The notes under the pieces are model-generated. The model did no database searches. It saw nothing but the letters and a program-made list of their open reading frames with translations, and was not told where the DNA came from. A program made the translations under genes and the position numbers. From a virus (lineage: Duplodnaviria; Caudoviricetes): 64,000 bases of DNA. Of this stretch, positions 30,542 through 52,836 are shown in pieces (the first letter of the stretch is position 1; the number at the start of each line of letters is the position of its first letter). The DNA lies in the IMG/VR virus record IMGVR_UViG_3300007177_000042; one strand, given 5' to 3'.

Positions 30542-30819
30542 AAAAATACCACTACATAGAGTTGATTAAGGGACAGGCCTATTTGTTGTATGATGCTACA
30601 ACATCAAAAGACTTCTTCGATACCAAATCGATCATAGCAATCGGAGACGAACGAACAGTAAAAAACGAAATCAAAAAACTTTCGGGTGACTGTGTGTTCA
30701 TGTACTATCAACTTAAAGACGTAAAGTTGGCAAAGGACGGATCTATATTTCAGTTGGATTTCAAAAAATACCTTACTAAAAACTTTACCGAATATAAACC
30801 GGAAGAAAAGACTAAATGA
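30538..30819 (+). CDS. Hypothetical protein
   Basis: 93 aa, ATGA overlaps on both sides. Confidence 0.55.
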   Translation: MKKYHYIELIKGQAYLLYDATTSKDFFDTKSIIAIGDERTVKNEIKKLSGDCVFMYYQLKDVKLAKDGSIFQLDFKKYLTKNFTEYKPEEKTK

Positions 30820-32000
30820 GCGCTGCACACGAATTTTTTGACATAGACGAGTTTGATTTCGAGGCGGAAAAGAAAAAGTTTGTAGATAATATGAACTTTT
30901 TGAAATCTATGAGCGTCGAAGAAGCCACGTTTTACAAAAAATATGAAGAAGTACAGGGATATCGTTCGTATGTTTCACGTAGTTCTTTGGTAAAAGCCAA
31001 AATCTGGACTCCTACAGACATAAATAACGAAGAACTTACACTCAAAGAGTTGGATGCTATCAACCCAACTGTAGTTCATGTAACCACCGATGACCAAGAG
31101 TTTGATTGGCTGATGTTACGAGTGTTTTGTCACACAATGGAGTTCAGTCAAACGCCTGGTCGTTTTCTTAAGTTTCTGATTACAGATGGAAATGCCGATT
31201 CACCACGATACTTGGGTGCTGTATCAGTTTCAAGTGACGTTATTACAATTACAGACCGTGATACGTACATTGGGTGGACACCTGAAAACAAATTAGAAGG
31301 TAAAAAACTGGTTCATAGTGCAATTGGAAGTTGTATTATGAGCACGCAACCATTTGGATACAATTTTCTAGGTGGTAAATTGGTAGCATGTTTGGTGACT
31401 TCGGGTGTTGTAAGAGATGTTTGGAAAAAACTGTACGATCAAACGTTGGTGGGTATGACAACAACCAGTTTGTATGGCAGTTATAGCATGTACAATAGTC
31501 TAAAGTGGTGGCACAAGTGTGGATCCAGTGCTGGAAAAATCCCTATCAAGCCAGATGATAATGTTTACAAAATTTGGCATGATTATATCAAGGAAAATAG
31601 AAAAGAAGAGTATAACAAAAAAATGACCCAAAAGGAGAATGTATCAGGACCAGTAACAGGTGCTAAACAACGGGTCATTAGTATGATTTTTCAGACGTTG
31701 AACCTGAAAACACAAGAATATGTTCACGGTTACGAACGAGGAGTGTACTACAGTTCGTTTTATAATAACACCAAAGATTATTTGTGTGGTAAAATAACAG
31801 AGGATAAACTGGTTATGAAACCACTTTTCGCTGAAGACACTAAATCGATTGTTGATTGGTGGAAACCAAAAGCTAAAGATCGTTATTTGAAGTTAAAAAG
31901 CGAAGGAAATCTTAAAACGGACGTTCTTTTCTATAATAGAATGATTGGAATGTCATATGATGATGCTAAAAACAACTTTTTTAACGAAGTTGGTCGATAA
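30816..32000 (+). CDS. DUF4338 (Druantia DruA-like) domain protein
   Basis: PGRFLKFLI...YLGAVSV..D.....RDTYIGW, STQPFGYNFLGGKLVA, TTTSLYG...YN pattern. Confidence 0.7.
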   Translation: MSAAHEFFDIDEFDFEAEKKKFVDNMNFLKSMSVEEATFYKKYEEVQGYRSYVSRSSLVKAKIWTPTDINNEELTLKELDAINPTVVHVTTDDQEFDWLMLRVFCHTMEFSQTPGRFLKFLITDGNADSPRYLGAVSVSSDVITITDRDTYIGWTPENKLEGKKLVHSAIGSCIMSTQPFGYNFLGGKLVACLVTSGVVRDVWKKLYDQTLVGMTTTSLYGSYSMYNSLKWWHKCGSSAGKIPIKPDDNVYKIWHDYIKENRKEEYNKKMTQKENVSGPVTGAKQRVISMIFQTLNLKTQEYVHGYERGVYYSSFYNNTKDYLCGKITEDKLVMKPLFAEDTKSIVDWWKPKAKDRYLKLKSEGNLKTDVLFYNRMIGMSYDDAKNNFFNEVGR

Positions 32001-34131: not shown

Positions 34132-34410
34132 ATGTTCAAAAAAGCAATATTATGGTCGTATATAGTATTGGCTTTATTTACCTATAAATTTCCGATATTA
34201 GTGCCACTAAGTTTAATCTTAGTGGCATTTTCTTTTTATCATATGCATCGGATTTTATTGATGAATAAAGACATAATCGACCAAAACACAGACGATGTTA
34301 ATCGTAGTATAACATCTTTACTTAACAATCAGAAAACCATACAATCTGACCTTAGAAAACTCAAATCATATACCGAGAAAAATGGCAAAAAAAGCGACAA
34401 CAAAAACTAA
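34132..34410 (+). CDS. Small membrane protein with coiled-coil tail
   Basis: Hydrophobic N-terminal ~40 aa then heptad segment. Confidence 0.55.
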   Translation: MFKKAILWSYIVLALFTYKFPILVPLSLILVAFSFYHMHRILLMNKDIIDQNTDDVNRSITSLLNNQKTIQSDLRKLKSYTEKNGKKSDNKN

Positions 34411-34894
34411 GAAGGTTCAGGTCGATGAAAGTGGTAATCCGATACCAAAAGCACTGGGTCTATTTGACCATGTGAATCATATACGTAAAGTCCAATCACT
34501 AGATTATTACGACACATTGTCTGATGTGGACAAAAAATCGTTTAATCATTTTATGATTTTGAGGACTTTATCGATGGACAGAAGTTCTATAGATTCGATT
34601 TCAAGTATAGCAAAATATCAATCTATAGTTCCCTCTAGAAATTTTTACATGTTGTGTACTGCTGTTACTAATCAAACTAATACCTATTTTCCTTATATCA
34701 AATCGTCTGCCAAATCGTTTAGTGATAAATTGATAGAATTGGTATCAAAAAAGTTTGAAGTGTCTACATTTGAAGCCAAAGAATATTGCAGAATTTATAT
34801 GAAAGATGAATCGGGTGTTAACGAGCTTCGACTCATATGTAAAGGGTACGGATTAACAGATAAAGAAGTTGATCAAGCAATGAAATATGAGTAA
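34382..34894 (+). CDS. Clamp-loader small subunit (T4 gp62-like)
   Basis: LFDHVNHI, FNHFMILRTLSM, YFPYIK, LIELVSKKFEVSTFEAKEY align by eye with gp62 blocks (FFEIIGAI, YSKFMVENALS, YGKWAK, IKLLAKRYQVNTNDAINY). Confidence 0.75.
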   Translation: MAKKATTKTKKVQVDESGNPIPKALGLFDHVNHIRKVQSLDYYDTLSDVDKKSFNHFMILRTLSMDRSSIDSISSIAKYQSIVPSRNFYMLCTAVTNQTNTYFPYIKSSAKSFSDKLIELVSKKFEVSTFEAKEYCRIYMKDESGVNELRLICKGYGLTDKEVDQAMKYE

Positions 34895-35549
34895 ACGTTA
34901 TATTGGAATTTCAGGTGTAGCAAGATCTGGTAAAAACCTATTTTGTGACATATCAAAAAATATACTGACCGAGAAGTATGGAGTCACATGTAACTCCTAC
35001 GCATTGGCATTTTATCTAAAGAACGATTGTCGTGAGTTTATCAAAGACAAACTCGGATTGGATGTTTTCACCGAAAATACCGATGAAAAGAAAATTTTCA
35101 GAGAAATGCTTGTTTGGTATGGTGACGTAAAACGTAAACAGTCTAACGGTCGTTATTGGACGGAAAAGTTACAAGCTGATATTGAAAAGGACAATTCGGA
35201 TGTTATCTTTATTACAGACATTCGTTATGATTTTTATCCAAAAGATGAAGTATACTGGATTAAGAAAGACCTAAATGGAACTTTGATTCACGTATCCAAA
35301 TATACATATGGATTTCCTCCGGACGGTCGTCGTATTCGTAGTGATGTAGCTGACACACAACAAAAAATTTGGGTTGAACCTGCCAACGATCATGAACGTT
35401 GGAACGATCCAAAAGTTAAAGCAGCTGCAGATTATACTGTTGCGTGGCCACATATAAAATCAGATGGGAAGACATATGATGATATTGTTAGGGACGAGTA
35501 TCTTAATACATTGATTTCTCCTATTTACGAACGAATATTTGGAAAATGA
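34887..35549 (+). CDS. Deoxynucleoside monophosphate kinase (T4 gp1-like)
   Basis: IGISGVARSGKN P-loop, FREMLVWYG..KR, FITDIRY. Confidence 0.8.
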   Translation: MSKRYIGISGVARSGKNLFCDISKNILTEKYGVTCNSYALAFYLKNDCREFIKDKLGLDVFTENTDEKKIFREMLVWYGDVKRKQSNGRYWTEKLQADIEKDNSDVIFITDIRYDFYPKDEVYWIKKDLNGTLIHVSKYTYGFPPDGRRIRSDVADTQQKIWVEPANDHERWNDPKVKAAADYTVAWPHIKSDGKTYDDIVRDEYLNTLISPIYERIFGK

Positions 35550-36385
35550 AAGGAATCATTCTATCAGGCGGCACTGGTTCTAGATTATATCCACTAACAA
35601 CGGTGGTCAATAAACAACTATTGCCTGTGTATGACAAACCAATGATATACTATCCTTTGTCTACACTTATATCGTGTGGGATAAAGGATATATGCATCAT
35701 TTCATCTTACGATTTTTTGCCTCTATATGAACGGTTGTTTGGCGACGGTAATAAACTTGGATTAAACTTGACATATAAAGTTCAACCAAAACCAGATGGT
35801 ATTGCCCAGTCTTTTATTATCGCTGAAGATTTTATCGGAGATGACAGTGTATCTTTGATTCTCGGTGATAATATTTTCCATGGGTTTAATCGAATGAGAG
35901 TCGATTTCACCGGTGCGGTTGTATTTGCTTACAAAGTCAATAATCCACAGGAATATGGTGTGGTTGAATTTAACGATGACGGTAAGGTTTTGTCCATTGA
36001 GGAAAAACCAACCTCACCTAAGACAAAATACGCCGTTCCTGGCCTATATTTCTACGACAACAGAGTCGTGAGTATAGCGAAACAACTAAAACCCTCTAAA
36101 CGAGGTGAACTAGAAATCACGGACATCAACCAAAAATATCTTGAAACCAACGATTTGAACGTGGTTAGGATGCCAAAAGGAACTGTTTGGCTGGATGCTG
36201 GTGTACCTTCTACTTTATCACAGGCAAGTAATTATGTACAAACAGTGCAAGAACGACAGGGGTGTAAAATAGCGTGTATTGAAGAAGATTGTTTGAATCA
36301 AGGGTTCATTGATAAAAAACAATTCAAGACGTTAATAAGCAAACTACCAAAATCGGAATATAGAACATACTTAGAATCTTTATGA
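35546..36385 (+). CDS. rmlA: Glucose-1-phosphate thymidylyltransferase
   Basis: KGIILSGGTGSRLYPLT, KQLLPVYDKPMIYYPL, LILGDNIF, RGELEITD, WLDAG. Confidence 0.95.
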   Translation: MKGIILSGGTGSRLYPLTTVVNKQLLPVYDKPMIYYPLSTLISCGIKDICIISSYDFLPLYERLFGDGNKLGLNLTYKVQPKPDGIAQSFIIAEDFIGDDSVSLILGDNIFHGFNRMRVDFTGAVVFAYKVNNPQEYGVVEFNDDGKVLSIEEKPTSPKTKYAVPGLYFYDNRVVSIAKQLKPSKRGELEITDINQKYLETNDLNVVRMPKGTVWLDAGVPSTLSQASNYVQTVQERQGCKIACIEEDCLNQGFIDKKQFKTLISKLPKSEYRTYLESL

Positions 36386-37248
36386 TATTATTACTTGGAT
36401 CAACGGGATATATTGGTACAGAATTTTATAGACAACTGTTTCAAAGGGGTATACCTACACGAAGTTGTACAGTACCCACAAAGGAATTGACGTTTAATCA
36501 GCTTAAAATGTTACACAAAACATTAAAATTGACAGCAGTTATTAACTGCGCTGGATATACCGGCAAACCAAACGTAGATGCTTGTGAGACTGACAAACAT
36601 AATGCGATATATGGAAACGTCGTTGTACCAGAAATGGTATCTATTTTTTGTGCTGATAACAACATCACGTTTGGACATGTATCATCTGGATGTATTTATA
36701 CGGGTCGTAGATTAGATGGACAACCATTTACAGAACATGATCGACCAAATTTTAGTTTTGAACAAAACAATTGTAGTTTTTATAGCGGAACTAAAGCTCT
36801 TGCAGAAGACATAATAAAGAAAAATGGAAACAAACATTATATATGGAGACTGCGTATACCATTTGAAGAGAAAAACAACTCTCGAAATTATTTGTCTAAA
36901 ATGTTGAATTACAAAAAACTTTTGGACGCAGAAAACTCTATATCTAATAAACAAGAATTTGTAAATGCTTGTATAGAAACATTGGTAAAAGAAGTTCCGT
37001 ATGGAATCTACAATGTTACAAACACTGGTTTTATAACCACCAAACATGTTATTCAAAAAATGCAAAATACAATCGCTAAAGACAAAGTGTTTGAATTTTT
37101 TGAAAATGAAGAAGACTTTTACAAGATCGCTGCAAAAACACCTAGATCAAATTGTGTGATGAGTAATAAAAAGTTATTGGATGCTGGTATTAAAATGCGA
37201 GATGTAGACGAAGCATTGGATTATTGTTTAACAAATTGGATCTCATGA
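36382..37248 (+). CDS. NDP-4-keto-6-deoxyglucose 3,5-epimerase/4-reductase-like (RmlD-superfamily SDR)
   Basis: GSTGYIG, NCAGYTGKPNVDACE, SSGCIY, SFYSGTK, LRIPF, RNYLSK. Confidence 0.8.
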   Translation: MILLLGSTGYIGTEFYRQLFQRGIPTRSCTVPTKELTFNQLKMLHKTLKLTAVINCAGYTGKPNVDACETDKHNAIYGNVVVPEMVSIFCADNNITFGHVSSGCIYTGRRLDGQPFTEHDRPNFSFEQNNCSFYSGTKALAEDIIKKNGNKHYIWRLRIPFEEKNNSRNYLSKMLNYKKLLDAENSISNKQEFVNACIETLVKEVPYGIYNVTNTGFITTKHVIQKMQNTIAKDKVFEFFENEEDFYKIAAKTPRSNCVMSNKKLLDAGIKMRDVDEALDYCLTNWIS

Positions 37249-38204
37249 ACTTGCTTGTTACCGGCGGATGTGGTTTTATAGGATCACATTTTATAGATGA
37301 AATGTTAAAACGTGACAATGTATATTCCATTGTGAATGTGGATAACATGTCGTATGCAGCCAATAAACAACTTTCATTTTCAAACAATGAAAGATATCAT
37401 CACTACAGTCTGGATATTTCTAAAAATCCAATTGATTTTTTGCTAAAATCGTATCATATCACCGACATAGTACATTTTGCGGCTGAAAGTCACGTTGATA
37501 ATAGCATCAATGATAGTGATCCTTTTATACAAACAAACATCGTTGGAACACACAAACTTTTGACAGATTGTTTGAAATATTCAAAGACGACGAACATTAG
37601 GTTTATTCATGTATCAACGGACGAAGTGTTTGGAAGTTTGGACTATACAGATGAACGATTCACTGTGCGTAGTCCATATAGACCAAACAGTCCATATGCA
37701 GCCAGTAAAGCTGCAAGTGATTTATTGGTAAGAAGTTTTGTAAGAACACACAGATTTCCAGCAATCATAACCAATTGTAGCAACAATTTTGGTCCTCGAC
37801 AACATAAAGAAAAGATGATACCAACGTGCATTCGGAATTTGAGAAATAAAACTCCGATTCCACTGTACGGAACCGGAACAAATATTCGTGATTGGATTTA
37901 CGTAAAAGATCATGTAAACATGTTGGTAAAAATACTTTATCAGGGAACAATTGGAAAACAATACTTAATAGGTGGTGATAATGAGATGACCAATATCCAA
38001 TTGATTACAGCGATAAAAGAACAATATTCATTGTTAACAGGTATTGATGTTGATTGGACATGGGTAAAATATGTGAATGATCGAAAGGGTCACGATTTGC
38101 GTTATGCGATTGATAATACCGATCTCATTGCAGAGTTTGGTGATCTTAATTATAACAACTTTACAAATGCGTTAAAGCAGACTATATTGTCGTATATATC
38201 ATGA
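37245..38204 (+). CDS. rmlB: dTDP-glucose 4,6-dehydratase (start ATG 37245)
   Basis: [72 protein letters not shown]. Confidence 0.95.
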
Positions 38205-39544
38205 GTGAATTTTTTGAAATTGAATCGTCCGATAAAGAGTACAAACATAAGGTTTTAGTATGGCCAAACATTACATACTCTGAAAATCTTGAAAAAGACT
38301 CGTATGTTATTGTATTATCAAATGTTATTAAAGCATTGAAATCGGTTCGCGATGATATATTTTGGACTATTGTAACGCCTGCTCATACAAAACTGTTGCA
38401 ATATGAAAATACTGAACAACTTATTTACAAATTCCCGACTTATCCAAATACGATGCGAGTTCATTTCGATGTGGATAAAGTTGCAAATATTCTTGATGTA
38501 CATAATCAGGATTATGACATAATCTATTCTCATCTGCCAGAACATACACTACAATTGGCTAATTATATTTACAACAATGCTGGAATTCGTCCTAAAATTG
38601 TTGGATACTGTCATTGGTATGAAGTCGAAGAAAACACCGGATACAGCAAAAACGTATTTGATCTCAATATTCTAGGTACGTTGGAGATGGAACAATGTGG
38701 TGTCAACTCAAAGTGGTTGAAAGAATTGGTATTACAACGTGCCGAAAGAACATTTAGTGCAGAAGTAATAAACAAACTGAATAGAATTATTCAACCACAT
38801 TATCTATCAAGCGATAGTGATTTTGACAACACCAATAAAACGATTGATAAAAGCATATTTTTCAATCACCGACCAAATGACTATACAGGATGGAACAGTT
38901 TTGTACAAGTCATGGATAAGTTGTGGGAAAAACGACAAGATTTTACTGTATATGTGACTCTTGCTGACGAATGTCGTCCTTACATCAAACGTGTCGAGTT
39001 AGAACGAAACAAATATTTTGACTTCATCAAACAAATGCACGTCGGAGTTGGATATTTTCAGACATATAGTGCATGGTCTTTGAGTGTAACCGATGGATTA
39101 ACAAGAGGTCTTCCATATCTTCTTCCAAAGAAACTATGCTATCCTGAAATGGTTGGCCCCGACTATCCGTTATTTTACGAAAACGAGGCAGAGTTTTTGA
39201 ATAAGCTTGAGGCAGCATTGGATAATAAAAACTTCAAAGTCGATCACGCAAACGAAATGAAAGAAATCGCGGATAGTCTTAGTTATAAAAATACCGTGCT
39301 TCAATGGTTCGATGAGTGGAGTATATTTGATGAATACGAAGTAATAAAGAGAAGTAAGGCGTATACTGATATTGTTAAGTTTATTGAACAAAACAAATGT
39401 GTTTCAAAACGTGATATTCTTGATTACTTGAACTGGGGTAGACAAATATCGTTTACTCCATATCGAAATACATTGAGAGAAGATCCAAGAATCATATTGA
39501 CTAAGGATCGATACATTTTCAAGACCGAGAAAACGACCGGATAA
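38201..39544 (+). CDS. GT-B (GT4-like) glycosyltransferase with extra C-terminal ~50-aa domain
   Basis: [38 protein letters not shown] acceptor/donor motifs. Confidence 0.7.
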
Positions 39545-39815
39545 TTGCGTTGTTGTGAACAAACGTAATTTTTGGTTGATCTAATACGGTAAAAAACACA
39601 TTGATATTGGCTGCTATTGTAGATGTCACCAACAATCTATATTGTGTTTCACATTCCATTTTAAGTCTGATTTTTTCTGCTTTTCGATTACACGAACACA
39701 TGTCTCTATAAGACTCGACAAGCAAAATATAATCCTTCATACCACCAATCGTATTTGAAATGGCATCATTGTTTTTAAGCAAATTGTAAAACTCCGTAAA
39801 ATTATTGATCGTCAT
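39519..39815 (-). CDS. Hypothetical protein (start ATG 39815, MTINNF)
   Basis: ATGA overlap with the upstream minus-strand gene; CSC motif. Confidence 0.5.
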
Positions 39816-40150
39816 AGAATCTTGTTCGTTATGGTAAAATATAACACCATTGATATTAAGTATTGAACACACACGGTATCGATTGTATTAAAGAAAATAG
39901 ACGATAGTATGTTAATCCAAAATCCTATACACCAAGGACACGATATCAATTTTGTAAAGAAACACGGATAAGTCGATTTTAACCAAGGAAGATATTCTAA
40001 TGTAAAATCGTTTTTGTATGCTTCTTCAAATTGGTCGATTTTGAATATCTTTGTTAACTTGAACAGTTTTGAGTATTCGATAAATGCTTCAGTATTGAAC
40101 CAAAGTATAAGTGTTACCGTCGAAAAGCATATTGTGTTTACAAAGTTCAT
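39812..40150 (-). CDS. Small membrane protein with CPWC motif (start ATG 40150)
   Basis: Hydrophobic segments, SCPWCIGFW; ATGA overlap. Confidence 0.5.
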   Translation of the reverse strand: MNFVNTICFSTVTLILWFNTEAFIEYSKLFKLTKIFKIDQFEEAYKNDFTLEYLPWLKSTYPCFFTKLISCPWCIGFWINILSSIFFNTIDTVCVQYLISMVLYFTITNKIL

Positions 40151-41055
40151 AGGGCAGATCTGATAGTGTATTGGTTTTTGATCTGAAACTCTTGTAGGCA
40201 CCTGCCTAACGCCGCCTCAGCCTTACTCTTGAAGTTGTTTCTATCCTCAAAGTATACCACGTAGTTTTTGTATGGGTTTGACCGCAACAAATAGTTCTCT
40301 GCTACAATTATATTGTTCATCAGATATTGTTCAACGTCGATCTTGTTTAGTTTCATTATTTGCGCAGCAAACATAACATAGGTATCATCTACACCGTATG
40401 GACCCAATACGTCTGGAATATCGGTGTGAGTCAGTAAATTAGAACTGATCATGTTAAACCATCCACCACCAAACTTTATTGGATTGCATGGCATAAGATT
40501 GACCGAATCAGAGTATGATTTTCTATTTACCTCGAAATATGGGTTGATGGTTCGTTCACTGCCGTACTTGTTGTCAATAAACTGTGAATTTACCAAATGG
40601 TCCCATGTAGAATCCCATATTTTTGTTATTTGTGGAGAAACGATATAATACTTGTTGGAAATGTGTTTAGCACAATGTATAGCGTAAGCCAAAATCCCAA
40701 CGGGAAATACCAAATCAGAATCAAGATAGATGAATGCATCTACACTATTTCCGAATTTACGTACACTGTTTCGTCTTTTGTCGTTAATACCTCTACATGA
40801 ACCATAGTCATCCACGTCAAAAATATAGTTTTTTGCCCACGATGTGTGTGTTACATATTTCGTAAGCGATTCAAACTTTTCTATGAAAAACTCTTTCGGA
40901 ATTTTGGTTTGATCCCAATTTACAGTGTTTAGATTAAGAGTTACATCCAATGTAACTTCCGCAGAATCAATAACTTCTTGACTCAAAACAGTTAGTTGAC
41001 GTTCAAATTCGTCAAGTTCATGGGGTAGAAGATGTGTAACTATTTGAATTTTCAT
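40147..41055 (-). CDS. GT-A fold glycosyltransferase-like protein
   Basis: FIYLDSD (DxD), KFGGGWF, YGVDDTY. Confidence 0.65.
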   Translation of the reverse strand: MKIQIVTHLLPHELDEFERQLTVLSQEVIDSAEVTLDVTLNLNTVNWDQTKIPKEFFIEKFESLTKYVTHTSWAKNYIFDVDDYGSCRGINDKRRNSVRKFGNSVDAFIYLDSDLVFPVGILAYAIHCAKHISNKYYIVSPQITKIWDSTWDHLVNSQFIDNKYGSERTINPYFEVNRKSYSDSVNLMPCNPIKFGGGWFNMISSNLLTHTDIPDVLGPYGVDDTYVMFAAQIMKLNKIDVEQYLMNNIIVAENYLLRSNPYKNYVVYFEDRNNFKSKAEAALGRCLQEFQIKNQYTIRSAL

Positions 41056-42149
41056 AGGATGTGTTTCTTAAACTTATGCATAGCAGAAGATATTACCTGA
41101 TGCATATCATAATACTTATACTCAGCTAATCGACCGCCAAATATGTATTTTGAGTCTTCTGAGAATAATAATCGATATTGTTGATAACGGTGCATATTTT
41201 TTTCATCATTGATCGGATAGTATTTTTCTTTTCCACGTTCCCACGTTTGTGGAAATTCTTTTGATATAATTGTAAAGTCTTGCGTACCAAACTCAAAATG
41301 TTTGTGTTCGACAATACGAGTGTATGGAATTGATTGTTCTGTAAAGTTCATTACAGCACATCCTTGATAATCTGGTTTGTTTAATCTATATTCTTCGAAA
41401 CGAAGACTTCGATATTCAAGTTCTCCATATTTGTAATCACAAAATTCATCTAATGCACCAGTATAAACCACCTTTTTTGCTAGATTGTCCCATTTATCTT
41501 GGTTTTTCAAATAATCTTCGTTGAGGATAACATCACATCCTTCTTGCATGTTTTCCAACATACGTGTGTATCCTCCAATAGGAATGCCTTGATGACAATC
41601 ATAGAAATAGTTATCGTCAAAGTTGGTACGTATTGGTATTCTGGAAATTATGCTTTTAGGTAATTCTTTGGGTTCTCGTCCCCATTGTTTTTTAGTATAT
41701 CCATGAAAAAATTTCAAATAAATCTCTTCTCCAACCGTAGATAAAAGATGTTCCTCTAAGTTTGAAGGGTTATCAATTTTGACACGAACTTCATTTAGTT
41801 TATTTATAGCTTCTTCTGGAGTGTTGCATCCGAAGATTTGATACAATGTAAACAAATTGATCGGAAACGAGTATATTTGATTTTGATAGTTTACCTTTAC
41901 ACGATTAGTAAAGTGGTTGAATTTTGCAAATCTATTGACGTATGTCCATACGTCTGCATTGGATGTTCTAAAAATGTGAGGACCATATTTGTGGACGTTG
42001 ATGCCGTTGACATTTTCTGTGTACACGTTTCCAGCATTATGCGTCCGTTTGTCAATGATCAAACATTTTAGTCCATGTTCAGTTGCTTGTTGTGCAAAAA
42101 CACTACCAAACATACCACTACCCACTATCAAAAGGTCGTATGATTTCAT
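41052..42149 (-). CDS. glf: UDP-galactopyranose mutase (start ATG 42149)
   Basis: IVGSGMFG, HKYGPHIFRT, GYTKKQWG, LEYRSL, TRIVEHKHF, EKYYPIND, GGRLAEYKYYDM. Confidence 0.95.
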   Translation of the reverse strand: MKSYDLLIVGSGMFGSVFAQQATEHGLKCLIIDKRTHNAGNVYTENVNGINVHKYGPHIFRTSNADVWTYVNRFAKFNHFTNRVKVNYQNQIYSFPINLFTLYQIFGCNTPEEAINKLNEVRVKIDNPSNLEEHLLSTVGEEIYLKFFHGYTKKQWGREPKELPKSIISRIPIRTNFDDNYFYDCHQGIPIGGYTRMLENMQEGCDVILNEDYLKNQDKWDNLAKKVVYTGALDEFCDYKYGELEYRSLRFEEYRLNKPDYQGCAVMNFTEQSIPYTRIVEHKHFEFGTQDFTIISKEFPQTWERGKEKYYPINDEKNMHRYQQYRLLFSEDSKYIFGGRLAEYKYYDMHQVISSAMHKFKKHIL

Positions 42150-43093
42150 TTGCATAAATCAACCATCATATTTGCGTAATGTTTATATGTATTTGGTTTG
42201 TCATGTACAAACCCAGTATTTGTGTTTTTATATTTCGTAATATACGATTCTATAGCGTTAATCATTTCATCGGTGTTATTGAATGATTCGTGATCCGGAA
42301 CAGTGCTATGATTCTTTGCAAAAGTTTTCATTTGTTCTATCGGATTTAGTGCAAATACTTTTGAGTTACACATGGACGATTCCCCAAGTCTTACTGGATA
42401 CTCTAAATGTACTGGTCCAACTTGTTCGTGGAGAGTGACAATAGACCTGTTATAATAACCGATACACTCTTCTGGACTAATAAATCCGTTTCGATTATAT
42501 GTTACTTTGAATCCTCTACGTTCAAGAACATTTAGAATTTTTACGACATTTGGTCTGTTGTTGAGGGTGCCAAAATATGTAACATCAACGTCTTTGTTCA
42601 CAGATCGACGAATATTTGACTGTGCTAGAGAACATGGAATGTACATATAGAACAAATTATCCGTTAACTGATAAAGGTGTTCATTGATTTTTTTACTTTT
42701 TGCAATTTTTTTTCTGAACTCTATAACGTTGATACCCTCCAAACCATATCTTTGATATTCTGGATCGAACCCCTTTGTAAGATATTCTTCGATTACATCG
42801 TTATCGTGTAATATGCTTTTTGAACAAAGATAAAAGTTTGTTTGTGGATTTTTTGCAGCAAGTTGTTCAATATCAAATACTGACCACAAAAATACGTTTG
42901 TTATGTTTGTATATGGAATGTCGAAAAAATCTCCAGATTCTCCAAACAATACGTCTATGTATTTGTTTGAAATGTGATTTCGAAGAGGGGGTGCAAAATG
43001 ATGTGTAGATTGTATGCTCGAAAAAGCATCAATAAAGCCAGTGATTTTGTGTTTATCTCGTATCGCGATATCTCCCGTAACGGCTATTTGCAT
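42146..43093 (-). CDS. Putative glycosyltransferase (GT-B C-terminal-like domain)
   Basis: DVTYFGTLNNRP, YPVRLGE; cluster context. Confidence 0.45.
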   Translation of the reverse strand: MQIAVTGDIAIRDKHKITGFIDAFSSIQSTHHFAPPLRNHISNKYIDVLFGESGDFFDIPYTNITNVFLWSVFDIEQLAAKNPQTNFYLCSKSILHDNDVIEEYLTKGFDPEYQRYGLEGINVIEFRKKIAKSKKINEHLYQLTDNLFYMYIPCSLAQSNIRRSVNKDVDVTYFGTLNNRPNVVKILNVLERRGFKVTYNRNGFISPEECIGYYNRSIVTLHEQVGPVHLEYPVRLGESSMCNSKVFALNPIEQMKTFAKNHSTVPDHESFNNTDEMINAIESYITKYKNTNTGFVHDKPNTYKHYANMMVDLCK

Positions 43094-43839
43094 AAAATTG
43101 AGTTTCTTTCTTTTGTTATAAGCACCGAATAACTATTAGATTTGTAATATACTTGATTTGATATATTTCCAAACGAATCTATTTTTTGAAGTACGTTTTC
43201 AATATAGTCCGTTGTTACATATAATTGTTCTAATGACTCGGGAACAAACGATAACTGGTTCAGAAGATCATTTCTAACCAATATTGCATTACCTGTATAG
43301 CAAACCATTTTATACCCTTTTGTTTGTGCTAATTTTGATACGGATAAAATAGAACATCCACCTGAAGATTTGAATTCTTGATCCACAGTATAGTTACTAT
43401 TTGTTTCTATTAGAACAATTTTTGGACGAAATTTGTTCATTGATTCAAATATCAAACAGTCGCAGGAGTCTACATCTATCGACATCAAACAAAATTCGTC
43501 ATCCGTCAAGTTAAATTTCGATTTTGTGAGAATGTTATCTATCGAATTGTTGTGATTTATGTCTGGTTCAATAAATGCGTTGATACATTCTATGTTTTTA
43601 TTTTTTGATGATAGATCGTTTAAATCCACACATCGAGATTTGTTTCCTTCGATCAATATCGCATTAAATCTCTGATCTTTCCATAAGTTAAATACGTTAC
43701 TCAAATATATGCCGTCCCATGCTCCAAATTCAACAACGACTCCATTAGAAATGTGTAATTCTTTAAACAACTGTTCTATAATACCGTCTTCTCCATTCTG
43801 AGAAAAAACGTTTTTTGCATATTTAATGTATCCATTCAT
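43084..43839 (-). CDS. FkbM-like SAM-dependent methyltransferase
   Basis: FSQNGEDGII, VEFGAWDG, LIEG, SIDVDSCD, IETN. Confidence 0.75.
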   Translation of the reverse strand: MNGYIKYAKNVFSQNGEDGIIEQLFKELHISNGVVVEFGAWDGIYLSNVFNLWKDQRFNAILIEGNKSRCVDLNDLSSKNKNIECINAFIEPDINHNNSIDNILTKSKFNLTDDEFCLMSIDVDSCDCLIFESMNKFRPKIVLIETNSNYTVDQEFKSSGGCSILSVSKLAQTKGYKMVCYTGNAILVRNDLLNQLSFVPESLEQLYVTTDYIENVLQKIDSFGNISNQVYYKSNSYSVLITKERNSILCK

Positions 43840-43842
43840 AGT

Positions 43843-44550
43843 TTATATTTTGATGTATTCCACAGACGGAACGACAAAAAATTTTGTTTTCATTTGATAA
43901 TCATACCAACTTTCGTTAGTATTTGGTTTGATATGTGACGACATTATACAGATTTGTTTGAAATTTTGGTTAATATGTCGAATGGACGATGCCAACATAT
44001 GAGGTCCTGAATTTAAAGAAACAAAAGTATGACAACAGTTGATCAAGTCAACATATGTAGTAAGATCCGGTACCTCAATGTATTCAAATCCAAATGTTAA
44101 TCCGGAAGAATTTTTGTTTACAATCAATTTGACATTTGTATATGTTGACTTTATGTATTTTACAACACGGTCTATATCATATGATACGGTAATAGATCCC
44201 AAATCAATTAACACATCAATGTTTGATATATCGTTTTTTGGTTGATAGTATATCTTTGGAAAGCTGTTTTTTGGAACCAATCCATGAATATATTCCCAGT
44301 TTTTGATAAAATCATCGAATCGATTTTCGTATGATCTTCCGGGAATATCTCCCAATGTCCATTTGACATCTGATTGCCCTTTTATGTATGGATTTTTATC
44401 CCATACTATGGATCTTGTTGATGCGCTTCGAAACGGTGCGTCGTTGGTAAGAAACACCTCATGACCCTGTTCATGAAAACGTTCTGGTAAAGTGGAGAAT
44501 TGCAGCGTGTCACCTAGTCCACCAAAATAAGATTTGATTCCGTGTATCAT
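43843..44550 (-). CDS. GT9-like glycosyltransferase
   Basis: GGLGDTLQFS and FVSLNSGPHMLAS motifs. Confidence 0.55.
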   Translation of the reverse strand: MIHGIKSYFGGLGDTLQFSTLPERFHEQGHEVFLTNDAPFRSASTRSIVWDKNPYIKGQSDVKWTLGDIPGRSYENRFDDFIKNWEYIHGLVPKNSFPKIYYQPKNDISNIDVLIDLGSITVSYDIDRVVKYIKSTYTNVKLIVNKNSSGLTFGFEYIEVPDLTTYVDLINCCHTFVSLNSGPHMLASSIRHINQNFKQICIMSSHIKPNTNESWYDYQMKTKFFVVPSVEYIKI

Positions 44551-45155
44551 GACCCAAAAATAAAACCCAATTGGTAGTTTTCAAAAATAGGAGATTTTCC
44601 AATTTGTGCCATAAATTCCTTTATCAGATATCCTTTGGCCATACTATCTTTATTTATATGATCGTCTATAACGATAAGTGTATGTGGTTGTAAATTCTTC
44701 ATGATCGCACAAAGTTCTTTCAGATGATGAATTTGTGACGGCATTGGGTTTTTTGTATCCAAATCAAATGAGTCGAGATAAACCATATCTACTTTTTCTT
44801 TGTATCCCCAAAGAAATGGAATTGAGTCTGAACATATTATGTTTGATTTTTTACTCACTTTAGAACGAGCATGTGAACAGTTTTTTTCGTTTATATCCAC
44901 TGAAGTAAAACTTCCACCATGTACATTTATAAATTGATCAAACAAAAAGGAGCTACATCCATCGTCACCAAAGGCCATATCACCGTGATCCGAACGCATG
45001 ACGCCAGTCTCCAAGATTACCGGGTTTGATATTTTCTCCAAATATTCAAATATAAACTGAAAGTTATCACCTCTGTTACGTATTGGATTGGAAGGATGTC
45101 CCGGTTTGAACATCAACGGATAATATGTAGATTTAAACGTCTCTGAAAATTTCAT
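44547..45155 (-). CDS. Class I SAM-dependent methyltransferase
   Basis: ILETG, SVDI, CSDSI, MVYLDSFD, IVIDD. Confidence 0.75.
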   Translation of the reverse strand: MKFSETFKSTYYPLMFKPGHPSNPIRNRGDNFQFIFEYLEKISNPVILETGVMRSDHGDMAFGDDGCSSFLFDQFINVHGGSFTSVDINEKNCSHARSKVSKKSNIICSDSIPFLWGYKEKVDMVYLDSFDLDTKNPMPSQIHHLKELCAIMKNLQPHTLIVIDDHINKDSMAKGYLIKEFMAQIGKSPIFENYQLGFIFGS

Positions 45156-45961
45156 GGTAAATATAGGTTTTGGTTTCGTTTGGGACCACAGATCAAATCA
45201 CGATGTCGAGATAATACAATTTTTGAATTTTTGAAATTGGACATCAACAACCATTTTTTGGGTCTGTTGTTTTCTCTTGTACCACCCCACACATCTTGTG
45301 ATTCAAAATCGATCCAATAACATCCGGATTTGTATCCTTTTTTAAACGCTCTATAACACAAATCATGATCATCCATATCCTGTGGAGAAAATGATTCATC
45401 AAAATAATTCAATTCTTGTAAGACGCTGTGTTTCAACAATAACGGTCCTCGATTGACAGAATCACGCATAGCGAACGTGTTTCGATCTATATTTCTTCTA
45501 TCTGCGTGATCTGTGTGAAACAAAATATCGGCCCAATCGTTTCCGTGAAATTCTGATACATGTACATCTTTTGATTGAGGATTCAAAATCCAATTGTGAG
45601 CCATTCTGGCCGTTACCGCAAACACATCTCCGAACGTGTATATCGGTTTTAACATTCGTATGTTCCATCCGTGTTCCTTGACAATCATATCATCTTGAAC
45701 AATGATAATATGATCTCCGTCACTATTTTTTGCAGCCAAATTGTTTGCTTGTGTTTCGAATACATTTGGGGCATATAGTTTTTTTGTTTTTATGGATGGG
45801 TTGGATAACATGAACCGATCTACAATAGATTCAGATTCATCAGTACAACCATCTAGTACAATTACAAGTTCGTATGGACCGACTGTATTTTCTTTAATAC
45901 CATCGAGAACACGTTGTAAAAGAAACCCTTTGTTATGAACCGTTAAATTTACACTCAGCAT
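45152..45961 (-). CDS. GT2 glycosyltransferase
   Basis: LVIVLDGCTDES, IVQDD, DMDDHDLCYR. Confidence 0.85.
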   Translation of the reverse strand: MLSVNLTVHNKGFLLQRVLDGIKENTVGPYELVIVLDGCTDESESIVDRFMLSNPSIKTKKLYAPNVFETQANNLAAKNSDGDHIIIVQDDMIVKEHGWNIRMLKPIYTFGDVFAVTARMAHNWILNPQSKDVHVSEFHGNDWADILFHTDHADRRNIDRNTFAMRDSVNRGPLLLKHSVLQELNYFDESFSPQDMDDHDLCYRAFKKGYKSGCYWIDFESQDVWGGTRENNRPKKWLLMSNFKNSKIVLSRHRDLICGPKRNQNLYLP

Positions 45962-45962
45962 A

Positions 45963-46637
45963 TTATTTCACGTCATTTACATTACATTTTACAAAACATC
46001 GCAATATACTAGGAAAGTATTGTTTGTTGTGTTTTATTATTAAATTTGATAGTACACTCTGATCATATCTGTGATCGACATATTCTGGTAAGTTAGGAAG
46101 ACCACAAACATTTGGATCGTCAGTGATAATACGTGCATCTTTACAATATCCAAGCCATTCTGATATAAAATCTTTGGATTCGTCGGTATTTTTAAATGCA
46201 CATATACCAGCTTCACATTGAATTTCGTCCCAATAATGATGTGAGTCACAGTTCATATAATAAAAGGTATCTCGTTTTGTATACATTTTATTTTTGAATG
46301 AACCTTTTAGAAACAACATTGATGGACTTGTCATGTTTTCTTTTATAACGTCGATTGCCTCTCCAGTGTATATGTCTGCACAATCGATATAAAACACAAC
46401 ATCTCCATGTGGTATTTGGGTTAACGCATCCAATATAATGTGTGGTTTCCACAGACAAAACCCACTCCCTCGTTCTCTATCCAAAATTGTTTTGTTTTCG
46501 GCATAAAACGACGTAGTTTTTAATTGATCAAACGTGTATGTAAAGGTATTCAAATTTAACGATTTTGAATATTCTTTCAAATTCATTTGATGATCTGTGT
46601 ATTTGTAATTTGAAAATGTAACAACGTGTATGTTCAT
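45963..46637 (-). CDS. GT-A fold glycosyltransferase-like protein
   Basis: GFCLWKPHII, FYIDCAD, HRYDQSVLS. Confidence 0.6.
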   Translation of the reverse strand: MNIHVVTFSNYKYTDHQMNLKEYSKSLNLNTFTYTFDQLKTTSFYAENKTILDRERGSGFCLWKPHIILDALTQIPHGDVVFYIDCADIYTGEAIDVIKENMTSPSMLFLKGSFKNKMYTKRDTFYYMNCDSHHYWDEIQCEAGICAFKNTDESKDFISEWLGYCKDARIITDDPNVCGLPNLPEYVDHRYDQSVLSNLIIKHNKQYFPSILRCFVKCNVNDVK

Positions 46638-46638
46638 A

Positions 46639-47703
46639 TCACACCTTATATTTATCTGTGTATTCCACGCGCGTATAGTATGCTTGCAAATATTCTTTTG
46701 GCTTCGATTTTAAGATGTTGTATAAACGGTCGTTTTGTGAAAAAAATGGATTTTTTGAAGAAGAATTTGAACCACGTTCGTGTTCAAAGTGATAAACAAT
46801 TCTATCTTTTAAATGTAATACTTTTGTTTCTAAATTTACAAAACGACTGTATCGTTCAAAGTCTTCGGGGCCATATGATACAAAATACTCATTTTCACCA
46901 CCATATTGTTTATAAGTATTTGTATTGAAAAATTGGCAATGTCCGAACCAACTTAGAAAATACATTGTTTCAAAATCAGAGTCTACCAATTTTGTAAGTG
47001 ACGGATCCACAATAATCTTGTCTCTACCAGACGGGTTTACCTTGTGTTGAAAGTTTCCGTAGCCATACGGATATACCAAATCATAGTTTTCATTTAGAAT
47101 TTTTTTACACGCTTCCACATAAGATTCAACAGGAAGCACAACATCTATATCATAATTCACCGTTATTGGTGTTTTTGACATGTTTAACATGTAATTTAGA
47201 TATCTAGTTCTATGAAATATTTGAGTATCGTTTTGTTCAAAAATGTGTGTTACATTGTCTTTGACAATATTTTGTAACTTTGAATGTTCATCCATTTCAT
47301 AGATTATGATATTGGTATCTAAATTGGTTGATAGATAATTTATCGTTGCATGAAAGTTCTGTAGTCTGTCGTTGCTGTCAATTTTTACGGGTATTATGAA
47401 AGTAGCATCCGTCAACTTTACAAACCCATTTGTTGTTGATTTTGCATGCTTTATTGTTATCTGTCCCTTTTTTAGGCTATTTGTTTTGTTGATACAATCC
47501 GACAAAAAAGTATTTTCGTTTTGGTTGTAATTGGGAATCGATATAGTTTCTTTAACTGTGTTGGTTTGCTGTGTCTCAAGAACCCGTAACAACGCAGGAT
47601 CAGCATTTCGTCGTCTTGCTTTATCGCTAATATATGAGTTATCGCCGTTCATGTTTTTTAAATCCGATTGTTTGTAGAGTTTGCCAGCATCAAATGTTTT
47701 CAT
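46639..47703 (-). CDS. GT7/GT2-like galactosyltransferase
   Basis: FIIPVKIDS, NYDIDVV, GGENEYFVSYGPEDFER, YHFEH. Confidence 0.75.
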   Translation of the reverse strand: MKTFDAGKLYKQSDLKNMNGDNSYISDKARRRNADPALLRVLETQQTNTVKETISIPNYNQNENTFLSDCINKTNSLKKGQITIKHAKSTTNGFVKLTDATFIIPVKIDSNDRLQNFHATINYLSTNLDTNIIIYEMDEHSKLQNIVKDNVTHIFEQNDTQIFHRTRYLNYMLNMSKTPITVNYDIDVVLPVESYVEACKKILNENYDLVYPYGYGNFQHKVNPSGRDKIIVDPSLTKLVDSDFETMYFLSWFGHCQFFNTNTYKQYGGENEYFVSYGPEDFERYSRFVNLETKVLHLKDRIVYHFEHERGSNSSSKNPFFSQNDRLYNILKSKPKEYLQAYYTRVEYTDKYKV

Positions 47704-48518
47704 AGAAGAAGCCAGTCGGGTTGATATAAGTCTTTGGTGTCAAGATCTTTAAGGTGTTCTTTAAACCATCTAGAAGGCGCCACGGTTTTTTTGGAATTGG
47801 ACTTACTAAGCCAACAACCCCACCAACTATATGAACTATTTGCTAAAATATAATGATCACACATGGTCATGATACACAAATCTACATATTGATTTTTGCT
47901 TTCAGAGATGAAAAAATTATCTGATCCAGCAAAAGTTGATTTGGCCCAGTTGATATCGTCTGTTAAAACAATAAAATTGTAAGGTTTGTCTGAAAAATAT
48001 GTAGTCAATGCTTTGTTGTAATAGTCTGTTGTACAAATTCCTCCGTGCCATGGGAAATCTAAATAATCTCCACGACGCACGTGAATAGATACGGTTTCTT
48101 GATCTTTTTTTGGATCAACAAACGATCTTGCTTCAGAAATAATATCATCGTGAAACGTAAATTCTTTTTTAACCAGATCGTTTACATGGTCAAAATACTT
48201 GTTGGTTTGAAAATATCCACGCAGATTTACGTTGTCTCCTGTATTAAAGAATCTATCTTGAAAATGAAAGTTTTGATCACCCTCGGTTATTTCTGGATAC
48301 GATTGTGTTGTATGTTTTGCCGACAAATTAAAACACTTATTCAATGACAATATATCTCTTCTATTATCTACACCAAACTCTCTCCATGTTTTGGAGTCAC
48401 CGATATCATAATTTATACCATATTCACAATTTTGTTTTGATGCAATGCCAAGTAGGGCAGCATATTGAAACATTTGATTGCCCAAACGTCCGTGTGTACC
48501 GATCTTACATGTAATCAT
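47700..48518 (-). CDS. GT11 alpha-1,2-fucosyltransferase-like protein
   Basis: GRLGNQMFQYA, GYFQ, SIHVRRGDY, TDD, ANSSYSWWG. Confidence 0.9.
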   Translation of the reverse strand: MITCKIGTHGRLGNQMFQYAALLGIASKQNCEYGINYDIGDSKTWREFGVDNRRDILSLNKCFNLSAKHTTQSYPEITEGDQNFHFQDRFFNTGDNVNLRGYFQTNKYFDHVNDLVKKEFTFHDDIISEARSFVDPKKDQETVSIHVRRGDYLDFPWHGGICTTDYYNKALTTYFSDKPYNFIVLTDDINWAKSTFAGSDNFFISESKNQYVDLCIMTMCDHYILANSSYSWWGCWLSKSNSKKTVAPSRWFKEHLKDLDTKDLYQPDWLLL

Positions 48519-48519
48519 A

Positions 48520-49179
48520 TCATTTTCTTATGTTATCATCAGCTGAAAATTTGGACATGTATCTTTCATTGTCGTTGCGCTGTTTCTCTATCGTTTTTTC
48601 GTGATACAATGATAGTTCATATACATCCGGAATGTACGAATATTTGTCCATTCCAACAATCGTTTCGTGCAACTTTCGTTCCCACTTGATTCTAGGGTCA
48701 TTTTTATAGATTCTACTTTGATAATCTGGCCAATTGACCAATCCATCTTTATTGGTTCTCCACCCCCATTTCTTGATGTCGAGGTCAGTCATCCCAATAA
48801 ACATGTTTTTTCGTGGAACATGAAATACATCAATCTGAGGATTTGATTCGAAGATTGAAGGCAAGTTTAACAACAGTATTTCGTTTGGAAGTTCGTCACC
48901 ATCGATTTGAAATATGTACTTTCCATTGCACAAAGAGTTTCCATAATTCTTATGTTCTCCATAATGGTCGTTCAGAGCATGCTTATGTAGTTTGATAGAT
49001 TTGTTGTTACTCCATCGAGTTAGTATTTCGATGGTTTTTTCATCTGTAGAATAGTCATCTACAACAACAATTTCTTTGGTGTGATCACCGGATTCATAAG
49101 CTACTCTCCAAAACAATTTTTGAAGGTTTTCTCCTTCATTGTGGGTGGTGATTAGATACGATATCAAAATATCACTCAT
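48520..49179 (-). CDS. GT2 glycosyltransferase
   Basis: ITTHNE, VVDDYSTD, FQIDGDE, WPDYQSR, LHE. Confidence 0.85.
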   Translation of the reverse strand: MSDILISYLITTHNEGENLQKLFWRVAYESGDHTKEIVVVDDYSTDEKTIEILTRWSNNKSIKLHKHALNDHYGEHKNYGNSLCNGKYIFQIDGDELPNEILLLNLPSIFESNPQIDVFHVPRKNMFIGMTDLDIKKWGWRTNKDGLVNWPDYQSRIYKNDPRIKWERKLHETIVGMDKYSYIPDVYELSLYHEKTIEKQRNDNERYMSKFSADDNIRK

Positions 49180-50489: not shown

Positions 50490-50491
50490 AG

Positions 50492-51052
50492 TTATTTGTT
50501 GAAAATTTTATTGTCTCGTTCTCTGATAGCTTCTGAATATTTCTGACCTACGCTAATTTGTGCTTCTTTGATCTTTAACAAGTCTTCCAATGTTCTTGGC
50601 GACGACTTGACTGGATTTTTTTGTGCATCGGTACTTCCAAATCCACCTGTTCCACGATCTGTTTCATCTAGATTATCGGTCTCTGTGAACGTGTAGTCCG
50701 AATACTTTTCAAAGATGATTTGAGCTATGGCTGTTTCTTTTCCATCTTTGATAATCGGTAGTGTAACATTTTTATCTCCATGGTTCACTAATGCAACGAG
50801 AAGTTCACCTCGGTAATCTGCGTCAATGACTCCTGCGAGTACATCAATTCCGTGTTTTACGGCTAAACCACTTCGTGGTGCAATACGTCCATATGTTCCT
50901 TCTGGAATTGCTAATGCTATACCTGTTTTGAAAATTTTTCTTTCGCCTGGCTTCAAAACATGACTTTCGATGGCGTATAGATCGTAGCCAGCAGCCAGTG
51001 ACGATGCTTTGGATGGAATTTTAGCGTGTTCTGATACTTTTTTTACGTTCAT
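50492..51052 (-). CDS. dut: Trimeric dUTPase
   Basis: All five motifs: AAGYDL, RIAPRSGLA, GVIDADYRGE, IAQ, RGTGGFGST. Confidence 0.97.
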   Translation of the reverse strand: MNVKKVSEHAKIPSKASSLAAGYDLYAIESHVLKPGERKIFKTGIALAIPEGTYGRIAPRSGLAVKHGIDVLAGVIDADYRGELLVALVNHGDKNVTLPIIKDGKETAIAQIIFEKYSDYTFTETDNLDETDRGTGGFGSTDAQKNPVKSSPRTLEDLLKIKEAQISVGQKYSEAIRERDNKIFNK

Positions 51053-52562: not shown

Positions 52563-52563
52563 A

Positions 52564-52789
52564 TTATGTTTGTTCAGATGCAACAGAAGTAATCACAGAT
52601 TGACTCTCTGGAGACAATTGTGATATCTGGTGGTTATAAATTTGATCTCTAAAGTTGGTATCATTTACAAACAGATGTAGCGATTTGTTCACTAAATCTT
52701 GTAAATAAAACTTCTTTGAAGACGATAGTTGTTTGAATTGTTCGTAGATTTCTTTATCTACTTTTACGCTTGTTAACGATTTTGACATA
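52564..52789 (-). CDS. Ribbon-helix-helix-like small DNA-binding protein (start ATG 52789)
   Basis: TSVKVDKEIYEQFK...LQDLVNKSLHLF beta-alpha-alpha pattern. Confidence 0.6.
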
Positions 52790-52836
52790 ACTTTGAACAA
52801 TACATATATATTCGTTAACAGTGTATATATTTTTAT

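Follow-up and report, generated by a model that had tools for sequence, protein, structure and literature searches.

A 64,000-nucleotide stretch of DNA from a tailed phage (Duplodnaviria; Caudoviricetes), hereafter the window, encodes at 38201-39544 on the plus strand a 447-amino-acid (aa) glycosyltransferase (GT) of predicted GT-B fold, designated GT447, which we tentatively propose to be a DNA glycosyltransferase that is tethered to the replisome and has a new architecture. We regard this as a real possibility that falls slightly short of being probable, and every functional step in it is drawn from fold, conservation, and genomic context. GT447 would be made together with the replication proteins, would be held at the fork on the sliding clamp by its N-terminal peptide and on DNA by a C-terminal winged helix, and would, with a common nucleotide sugar as donor, glycosylate nascent DNA and thereby shield it from host nucleases. 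The glycosylation of DNA is a classic phage shield against restriction and CRISPR. The original prediction, made from the sequence of the window, had taken the nucleotide kinase and rhamnose genes ahead of GT447 to form with it a candidate operon that may rhamnosylate, or otherwise 6-deoxyhexosylate, phage DNA, a reading that is not supported, as described below. The window comprises bases 9754-73753 of a 171,680-bp IMG/VR virus record (IMGVR_UViG_3300007177_000042), a fragment that CheckV estimates to be 49% complete. The phage is of the T4 type, and its family-B DNA polymerase (PolB) is nearest to that of the Microcystis phage Mel-JY01, with 42% identity.

The structure of GT447 was modeled with AlphaFold2 (AF2) from 32 homologues, resulting in a predicted local distance difference test (pLDDT) score of 87.9. 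In this model, residues 16-375 (38246-39325, plus strand) form a catalytic core that is GT-B and GT4-like, with two Rossmann-like domains, and that is closest to 7qsg (VIA Z 27.5, root-mean-square deviation 3.3, 337 aligned residues), with a Foldseek E of 8e-12 for the core and further VIA scores of 25.4 for BshA, 25.2 for sucrose-phosphate synthase (6kih), 25.1 for MshA, and 21.0 for the GT of phage HY126, which bears out the earlier assignment to the GT-B enzymes. Sequence comparison places GT447 in no established family. No Pfam (E ≤0.01), PHROG, NCBIfam, or PADLOC model matched it; the Pfam scan gave 0 families, with no match to PF11440 or PF09198, which represent the α- and β-GT of T4, and a search of the GT447 profile against the sequences in the PDB returned only noise (gene V protein, E ~1). 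The GT4 sequence signature (Pfam Glycos_transf_1, E-x7-E) is absent, and the equivalent stretch is altered to YSAWS(L/I)S(V/T)TD. The DNA GTs of RB69, DLP3, and RL38J1 have 3c4q, 6kih, 3mbo, 7qsg, and 7fg9 as their top structure matches (PMC13326640). The PDB neighbors of GT447 are, thus, those of known DNA GTs, and the fold therefore fits a DNA enzyme without singling one out.

The tail of GT447, residues 376-447 (39326-39544 including the stop codon), reached a pLDDT of 85.9 when folded alone, with the topology H-H-b-H-H-b-b (H, helix; b, strand); by DSSP, the tail has helices at 11-23, 28-34, and 44-52 and strands at 25-27, 56-58, and 62-65. All top Foldseek hits and all 50 top VIA hits were winged helices (VIA Z 6.3-7.4), and the tail is a winged helix by its modeled topology. 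The third helix, which corresponds to the recognition helix, carries an invariant motif, W..YRN.LR, that is retained in bacterial homologues of 20-30% identity. The tail had been described as basic, winged-helix-like, and putatively DNA-binding; the topology stands by both Foldseek and VIA, whereas the net charge is only about +4. Language-model neighbors of the tail, with scores of at most 0.80, were uninformative.

The GT447 family is large, with more than 1100 clusters at 90% identity, nearly all of 440-450 aa, and 762 clusters at 50% identity. A tblastn search of 50,697 cultured or deposited phage records found no member at 1e-3, only noise from Lak phages (E 0.07). Longer fused forms of GT447 were looked for and none was found, which is weak evidence. 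The N-terminal domain, which should bind the acceptor, is near-invariant across freshwater and marine-type phages, and this argues for a universal acceptor, for instance DNA or a core phage protein, rather than a host-specific glycan.

The N-terminal peptide of GT447 (MSEFFEIE..., residues 1-15; 38201-38245) is disordered in the model (pLDDT 41) and bears a motif of the clamp-docking type. Across the family, the leader begins MSEFFE, MNIFDFT, or MDITNFLE, and the aromatic motif occurs in 54 of 62 distinct leaders compared with 3.5% of internal 24-mers. It resembles the presumed clamp-docking tail of the phage polymerase: PolB (54828-57494, plus strand; PF00136, PF03104) ends in SEFFDF, and the C-terminus xFF[SDE]F is conserved in the PolB of the clade. 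The same type of peptide, EFFDID, is found at the N-terminus of a 394-aa DUF4338/DruA-domain protein, DruA394 (30816-32000, plus strand; PF14236 E 4e-22; PADLOC DruA E 2.7e-20), and the related DruA proteins start with ..FF[DE], with at least 90% conservation of F7 and F8. The clamp-like peptide noted in the original prediction is, thus, a conserved trait of the family.

A clamp candidate on which the peptide could dock is a 247-aa protein (60553-61296, plus strand), which is the probable gp45 analogue, as judged from sequence matches of the clamp of the Pelagibacter phage HTVC008M to its homologues of ~240 aa (E 2e-7 and 3e-4). The copies in relatives sit between PolB and the clamp loader, and the trimer had a pLDDT of 91 in the complex prediction. 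The protein gave no direct match in Pfam, PHROGs, or the PDB (by sequence or profile), nor did a search of the record with PF09116 detect it. When three copies of the clamp candidate were combined with residues 1-32 of GT447 in a complex prediction, the score was 0.54, the best control scoring 0.01, with at least 50% of the contacts in common between runs and a partner pLDDT of at least 43. In the calibration of this test, 58 of 80 solved complexes attained the mark, as compared with 2 of 110 mismatches; at scores of up to 0.60, the figures were just 7 of those 80 solved complexes and both of the passing mismatches. The prediction, thus, lends weak support to docking of the peptide on the candidate clamp, and the pass may reflect likeness only, since clamp-peptide complexes have already been solved. 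Similar peptides were also observed in a small protein ending in QSFFEL that is encoded directly after PolB (57498-57899) and near the end of another small protein (AFFDGKEYDV; G000:C1:168556-169056, minus strand), the homologue of which adjoins the clamp loader in relatives; both may be further clamp clients.

The genomic context of GT447 was compared in 80 viral contigs, in which genes were labeled by similarity to this genome. GT447 was found there in a replisome cluster with PolB, the clamp candidate, DruA394, and both clamp-loader subunits, which in the window are a T4 gp62-like small subunit of 170 aa (34382-34894, plus strand; phrog_225 E 6.4e-12, with a weak match to Pfam Phage_clamp_A) and a gp44-like AAA+ large subunit of 322 aa (61835-62803, plus strand; phrog_168 E 1e-69). 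The large-subunit gene lies directly 3' of GT447 in several relatives, and a DruA394-type gene lies upstream of GT447 in most loci. In the marine-type groups, which have no glycan cluster, GT447 stands amid the polymerase, the 240-aa protein, a 395-aa DUF4338/DruA protein, and the two clamp-loader subunits. Most of the marine-type relatives also have, after GT447, a protein of ~255 aa (L025:11738-12499) with a weak HD-domain match and a match to phrog_28876, annotated as "metal-dependent phosphohydrolase," which ends in DLFDELFG, another clamp-type tail; in one marine-type lineage (L081:8697-10359), an FkbM-type methyltransferase and a glutamine-synthetase-like protein follow GT447.

Between the DruA gene and GT447 lies a variable slot, the contents of which include Mom (E 1e-38), an EcoRI-like nuclease together with a D12 (Dam-type) methylase, an N6/N4 methylase, a GmrSD_N-like protein, a GHKL ATPase, a PLOD-type GT-A, and numerous unknown proteins of 500-690 aa (examples at L038:6028-6642, L029:8081-9992, L057:844-2004, L065:7710-9227, and L043:1709-3331). 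In the records where the PLOD-type GT-A precedes GT447, a search for TAGT (PF20691) gave nothing. Of five long relatives, three have Mom-family genes, in one case 2 kb 3' of GT447 within the replisome cluster. The neighborhood of GT447 is, thus, that of a DNA-modification gene. DruA394 itself is a firm member of its domain family (PF14236 79 bits against a cut-off of 27), with a mean column identity of 60% within the DruA394 family, and it occurs without GT447 in the cultured Pelagibacter phages Mosig and HTVC008M and in T4-like cyanophages, among recombination and replication genes. The DruA domain has been called a GNAT domain (PMC10853773). With respect to the acyltransferase-fold proteins Mom of phage Mu and DruA of Druantia, the conserved neighbor of GT447 has a DruA domain, and true Mom-family genes lie in the same slot or cluster of relatives; the neighbors of DruA394 here are replication genes. 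Kinship of the DruA394 and Mom families was also tried with hhalign and rejected, with a probability of 0.4% and no similarity.

A DNA-directed enzyme is favored on account of the replisome location, the peptide-bearing DruA protein upstream, and the slot with Mom, methylases, an EcoRI-like nuclease, and GmrSD-like genes. The earlier suggestion that the GT acts on DNA has, in this respect, gained support from a replisome cluster kept in dozens of divergent phages, a polymerase-like peptide, a winged helix retained at 20% identity, and neighbors of the Mom, methylase, and restriction types, whereas the pathway to an acceptor was not found. A parallel is provided by T4, the α-GT of which, with the β-GT, glucosylates 5-hydroxymethylcytosine (5hmC) after replication. 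Like GT447, the α-GT is a GT-B enzyme of a T4-type phage; it is expressed with replication genes, as GT447 would be, and its binding to the gp45 clamp, with which it co-purifies (PMC13216743), may be compared with the polymerase-tail-like peptide of GT447. Unlike the T4 α- and β-GT families, GT447 lacks membership by sequence and carries a fused winged helix, and no dCMP hydroxymethylase was found in the record. The arabinosyl and hexosyl systems based on 5-hydroxycytosine (5hoC), those of RB69, DLP3, HY126, and the Rhizobium phage RL38J1, also use GT4-like GT-B enzymes as DNA GTs, with the PDB neighbors of GT447, and encode a nucleotide kinase near the GT, as is the case here (34887-35549). 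RL38J1 uses a phage UDP-galactopyranose mutase, and the window also has a gene for this enzyme (41052-42155).

Several observations weigh against an action of GT447 on DNA, and the search for an acceptor base supplied some of them. To our knowledge, all known DNA glycosylation starts from a 5-hydroxymethyl- or 5-hydroxypyrimidine made by a ThyA homologue or TET. No hydroxymethylase or hydroxylase of the ThyA type was found in the window or in the 171.7-kb record, and models of TET/JBP and C5-methylases matched nothing in the record or in five long relatives, the TET/JBP negative being weak since the control for these models matched nowhere. The absence of a hydroxymethylase or TET-like gene that had been noted for the window was, thus, confirmed and extended to the record, in which the proposed check for a modified-base pathway elsewhere in the genome found none; at 49% completeness, this result is not decisive. 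The sole ThyA homologue of the record lies outside the window (373 aa; G000:C1:103182-104303, minus strand; 391-403 aa in relatives) and has inserts of ~70 and ~40 residues relative to Escherichia coli ThyA. In the 5hoC systems, the ThyA homologue carries D169N plus N177D and L143E (PMC13326640). The dCMP hydroxymethylase that supplies 5hmC in the T4 system is a ThyA homologue marked by N177D and by an acidic residue in place of L143. Here, in contrast, L215, C218, D278, and N286, which correspond to L143, C146, D169, and N177 of the E. coli enzyme, are all canonical, and by the criteria of that report (PMC13326640) the protein would therefore be an ordinary dTMP synthase, not a synthase of 5-hydroxymethyl- or 5-hydroxy-dCMP. 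Furthermore, two relatives carrying GT447, 79% and 89% complete, have no ThyA-family gene at all. Thus, 5hmC, 5hoC, or 5-hydroxymethyluracil made by a ThyA homologue is probably not the acceptor base.

The remaining points on this side concern the two accessory modules and the company of GT447. The winged-helix matches mix DNA-binding with protein-binding domains (cullin WHB, Stn1, Rpa2), all with Z below 8; the identity of the clamp candidate rests on transitive hits; and the FF[DE] motif at protein termini, counted over the proteome, was seen 5 times when ~2.3 were expected, which is not significant alone. In addition, the phage encodes ~20 further GTs, and GT447 heads the strand of the glycan cluster in the relatives of 58% identity, so that it could prime a non-DNA glycan. 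The overlap of the RmlB stop codon with the start of GT447 would allow a shared use of rhamnose, which the hosts of phages without rml genes could supply as dTDP-rhamnose, and the association of bacterial homologues with a CHAT protease hints at protein or small-molecule chemistry.

GT447 is the last of six plus-strand open reading frames (ORFs) in a run at 34382-39544, each start of which overlaps the preceding stop, as the original prediction had correctly described. The gp62-like gene opens the run and lies ahead of the kinase gene in relatives too. The kinase (220 aa; 34887-35549) is a gp1-type deoxynucleoside monophosphate (dNMP) kinase-like P-loop protein (phrog_139 E 3.1e-13; Walker A GVARSGKN) with no PDB sequence match; it adjoins GT447 in the 58%-identity group and is not adjacent to it in marine-type relatives. 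Next come RmlA, a glucose-1-phosphate thymidylyltransferase of 279 aa (35546-36385; TIGR01207 389.9 bits against a cut-off of 360.65, PF00483 E 2e-61), a putative bifunctional 3,5-epimerase/4-reductase of the NRS/ER type with the RmlD-like fold of short-chain dehydrogenases/reductases (SDR; 288 aa; 36382-37248), and RmlB, a nucleoside diphosphate (NDP)-glucose 4,6-dehydratase of 319 aa (37245-38204; TIGR01181 347.3 bits with full-length coverage, against a cut-off of 365.1), all on the plus strand. The RmlB start is the ATG at 37245, which overlaps the upstream stop, rather than the TTG at 37224, and the RmlB of relatives is 317-320 aa long. The best PDB matches of the SDR were 4qqr, the "3,5-epimerase/4-reductase" of Arabidopsis thaliana (5.4e-27), and 7jid, "UDP-L-rhamnose synthase" (8.5e-15), compared with 1e-10 or weaker for RmlD structures, and the protein fell far under the RmlD equivalog cut-off (TIGR01214, 79.6 bits vs 224). 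The epimerase/reductase assignment of the original prediction agrees with these matches. RmlC (PF00908) was not matched anywhere in the record, and from these sequence assignments the three enzymes appear to constitute a complete RmlC-less route to NDP-L-rhamnose. Such a route is known from plants (NRS/ER, UER1) and mimivirus (R141/L780), to which the present SDR is closer than to RmlD; unlike in these organisms, it is paired with a bacterial-type RmlA acting on dTDP-glucose, and the nucleotide carrier may therefore be dTDP, not UDP.

It may be supposed that the run functions as one unit, in which NDP-L-rhamnose or another 6-deoxyhexose, produced by the rml enzymes, is attached to phage DNA by GT447. 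The three-enzyme route is complete, the RmlB and GT447 genes overlap and would be co-transcribed with those of the clamp loader and the dNMP kinase, and the run is intact, without indels, in contigs from independent freshwater, aquaculture, and estuary sequencing runs of at least 10 studies. The seven nearest relatives (L006-L012) retain the arrangement and have, between the SDR and RmlB, an additional NDP-sugar C-methyltransferase of 412 aa (L007:7816-9054, PF08484 E 1e-42), which the window lacks; their product would therefore not be plain rhamnose but a branched or methylated 6-deoxyhexose, and it would differ among close kin. However, rmlA, the NRS/ER gene, and rmlB are confined to these seven relatives and are absent from more than 60 other GT447 loci. 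The donor-domain motifs of GT447 do not differ between phages that have these genes and phages that lack them. The alignment shows just two fixed differences in the rml-bearing group (H16 and A127), neither in the C-terminal donor domain. The rml genes co-vary instead with the neighboring minus-strand genes o46, o47, and glf, and the spot upstream of GT447 elsewhere holds unrelated genes, such as those for the 254-aa DruA-like protein, Mom, and restriction-modification enzymes, whichever gene precedes GT447 in other lineages also overlapping its start. Because of the restriction of rml to the closest relatives, the invariance of the donor motifs, and the co-variation with o46, o47, and glf, rhamnose is probably not the donor of GT447, and we consider the one-unit operon improbable. 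The rml genes are a lineage-specific movable cassette inserted in a variable hot spot, and this cassette most likely feeds the large separate set of GTs in the phage, many of which could use rhamnose, rather than GT447.

The likely consumer of the rhamnose is a minus-strand glycan block of 14 genes at 39519-53742, which includes, by Pfam matches, Glf, GT2, GT11, GT4, a methyltransferase, a dUTPase, and a terminal PD-(D/E)XK nuclease; further GT genes lie elsewhere in the window. The gene run of GT447 had been regarded as convergent with, and separate from, this block. It is convergent here, but it is not separate by descent: in the 58%-identity group, GT447 is preceded by the gene for the 254-aa DruA-like protein and followed contiguously on the same strand by o61, GT4_326, dUTPase, GT1_437, and GT2_219, which are the distal minus-strand genes of the window. 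The separate operon is, thus, a product of inversion. Within the block, the dUTPase (TIGR00576 above cut-off) lies directly after a GT4 matching the Pfam family "GT4-conflict" (50492-52029, minus strand), a pair that is kept in the 58%-identity relatives. A 453-aa fusion of a HAD phosphatase with a sugar-1-phosphate nucleotidyltransferase (58679-60040), beside more GT-like genes, is likewise a supplier of donors for the glycan set.

The abundance of glycan genes raises the alternative that GT447 glycosylates a virion or replisome protein, or primes a glycan extended by the other GTs, with the winged helix and the peptide serving as protein-docking modules. Virus-encoded glycosylation of capsids is known from chloroviruses, mimivirus, and mycobacteriophages. 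In this respect, the glycan block and additional GTs of the window, the co-directional GT4, GT1, GT2, and GT8 genes that follow GT447 in relatives of 58% identity, and the PLOD-type GT-A or FkbM methyltransferase beside GT447 in some relatives are all consistent with such a role, as are the protein-binding domains among the winged-helix matches and the Arthrobacter phage GTs that are the best viral structural matches beyond the family itself (E 1e-19). Most GT447 phages, however, have no glycan cluster and nevertheless retain GT447 among the replisome genes, beside DNA-modification and restriction genes, and the peptide matches the polymerase tail, not a motif of structural proteins. We therefore judge a protein or glycan-priming role to be unlikely, though worth serious consideration. 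Alternatively, GT447 could make a small-molecule glycoside, either in auxiliary metabolism or in a conflict system, with the glycoside as signal or decoy, and its top structural matches (MshA, BshA, and sucrose-phosphate synthase) indeed glycosylate small molecules.

The bacterial homologues bear on this last alternative. Homologues with 20-35% identity were found in Acidobacteriota, Methylobacterium, Planctomycetota, Bacteroidota, Sumerlaeota, and others; they have retained the winged helix with its W..YR motif and start at the first strand, without the peptide. The peptide is therefore taken to have been added, in phages alone, to an older GT-winged-helix enzyme with a conflict-type context of its own. 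At all nine loci with enough flank (L097:3524-9473, L103:8001-13512, and L104-L110), the bacterial GT gene lies beside those for a CHAT protease of ~598 aa and a 230-aa protein that has a domain in common with this protease, with a metallophosphoesterase (~465 aa) in five of the nine cassettes, and once beside a DUF499/DUF1156/SNF2 system; the flanks of five more distant homologues were too short for their context to be read. PADLOC v2 has no model matching the bacterial homologue, the CHAT protease, the metallophosphoesterase, or the 230-aa partner, and none of these partners was found in GT447 phages. The 250-aa HD-like protein of the marine-type phages was considered as a counterpart of the bacterial 230-aa protein and rejected, since hmmsearch found nothing and hhalign gave a probability of 0.1%. 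Although this cassette suits small-molecule chemistry, the fused winged helix and the clamp-type peptide would lack an obvious role in it, and the replisome context also argues against it; a small-molecule product, thus, appears to be distinctly improbable.

Promoter-like words in the analyzed DNA were also surveyed. The T4 late-promoter word TATAAATA was not enriched (9 observed vs 6 expected), and sigma-70-like sites were at chance level. The reverse complement of the late-promoter word, TATTTATA, was observed within short gaps between genes, 5-28 bases 5' of five plus-strand genes (window positions 1269, 1954, 3476, 13983, and 32006), with an overall count not above chance.

If GT447 acts on DNA, as we tentatively propose, this would point to a new acceptor chemistry, and in this it would differ from the 5hoC systems, given that the ThyA of this phage keeps D, N, and L and that two near-complete GT447 phages are without ThyA. 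It may be imagined that GT447 and DruA394 are clamp-tethered enzymes of a new DNA hypermodification that needs no hydroxymethyl- or hydroxypyrimidine and is widespread among T4-like phages of fresh and marine waters that have not been cultured, with the bacterial CHAT cassette as a related, uncatalogued conflict system; we regard this wider reading as speculative and rather doubtful. Under it, the GNAT-like DruA394 could install an acyl or other handle, to which GT447 would then add the sugar, or a canonical base could itself be the direct target of GT447. For uncultured phages, GT447, with or without DruA394, would represent a concrete, clonable entry point. The attractive notion of rhamnosylated DNA is corrected by the present analysis, in that the rhamnose genes are a movable cassette encoding an RmlC-less route like that of plants and giant viruses. 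What is carried in the replisome of these abundant aquatic phages is a conserved GT family with a DNA-type tail and a clamp-type peptide, for which the precursor pathway was not found and which, if it does act on DNA, would extend the glycosylation of phage genomes to a new kind of acceptor.

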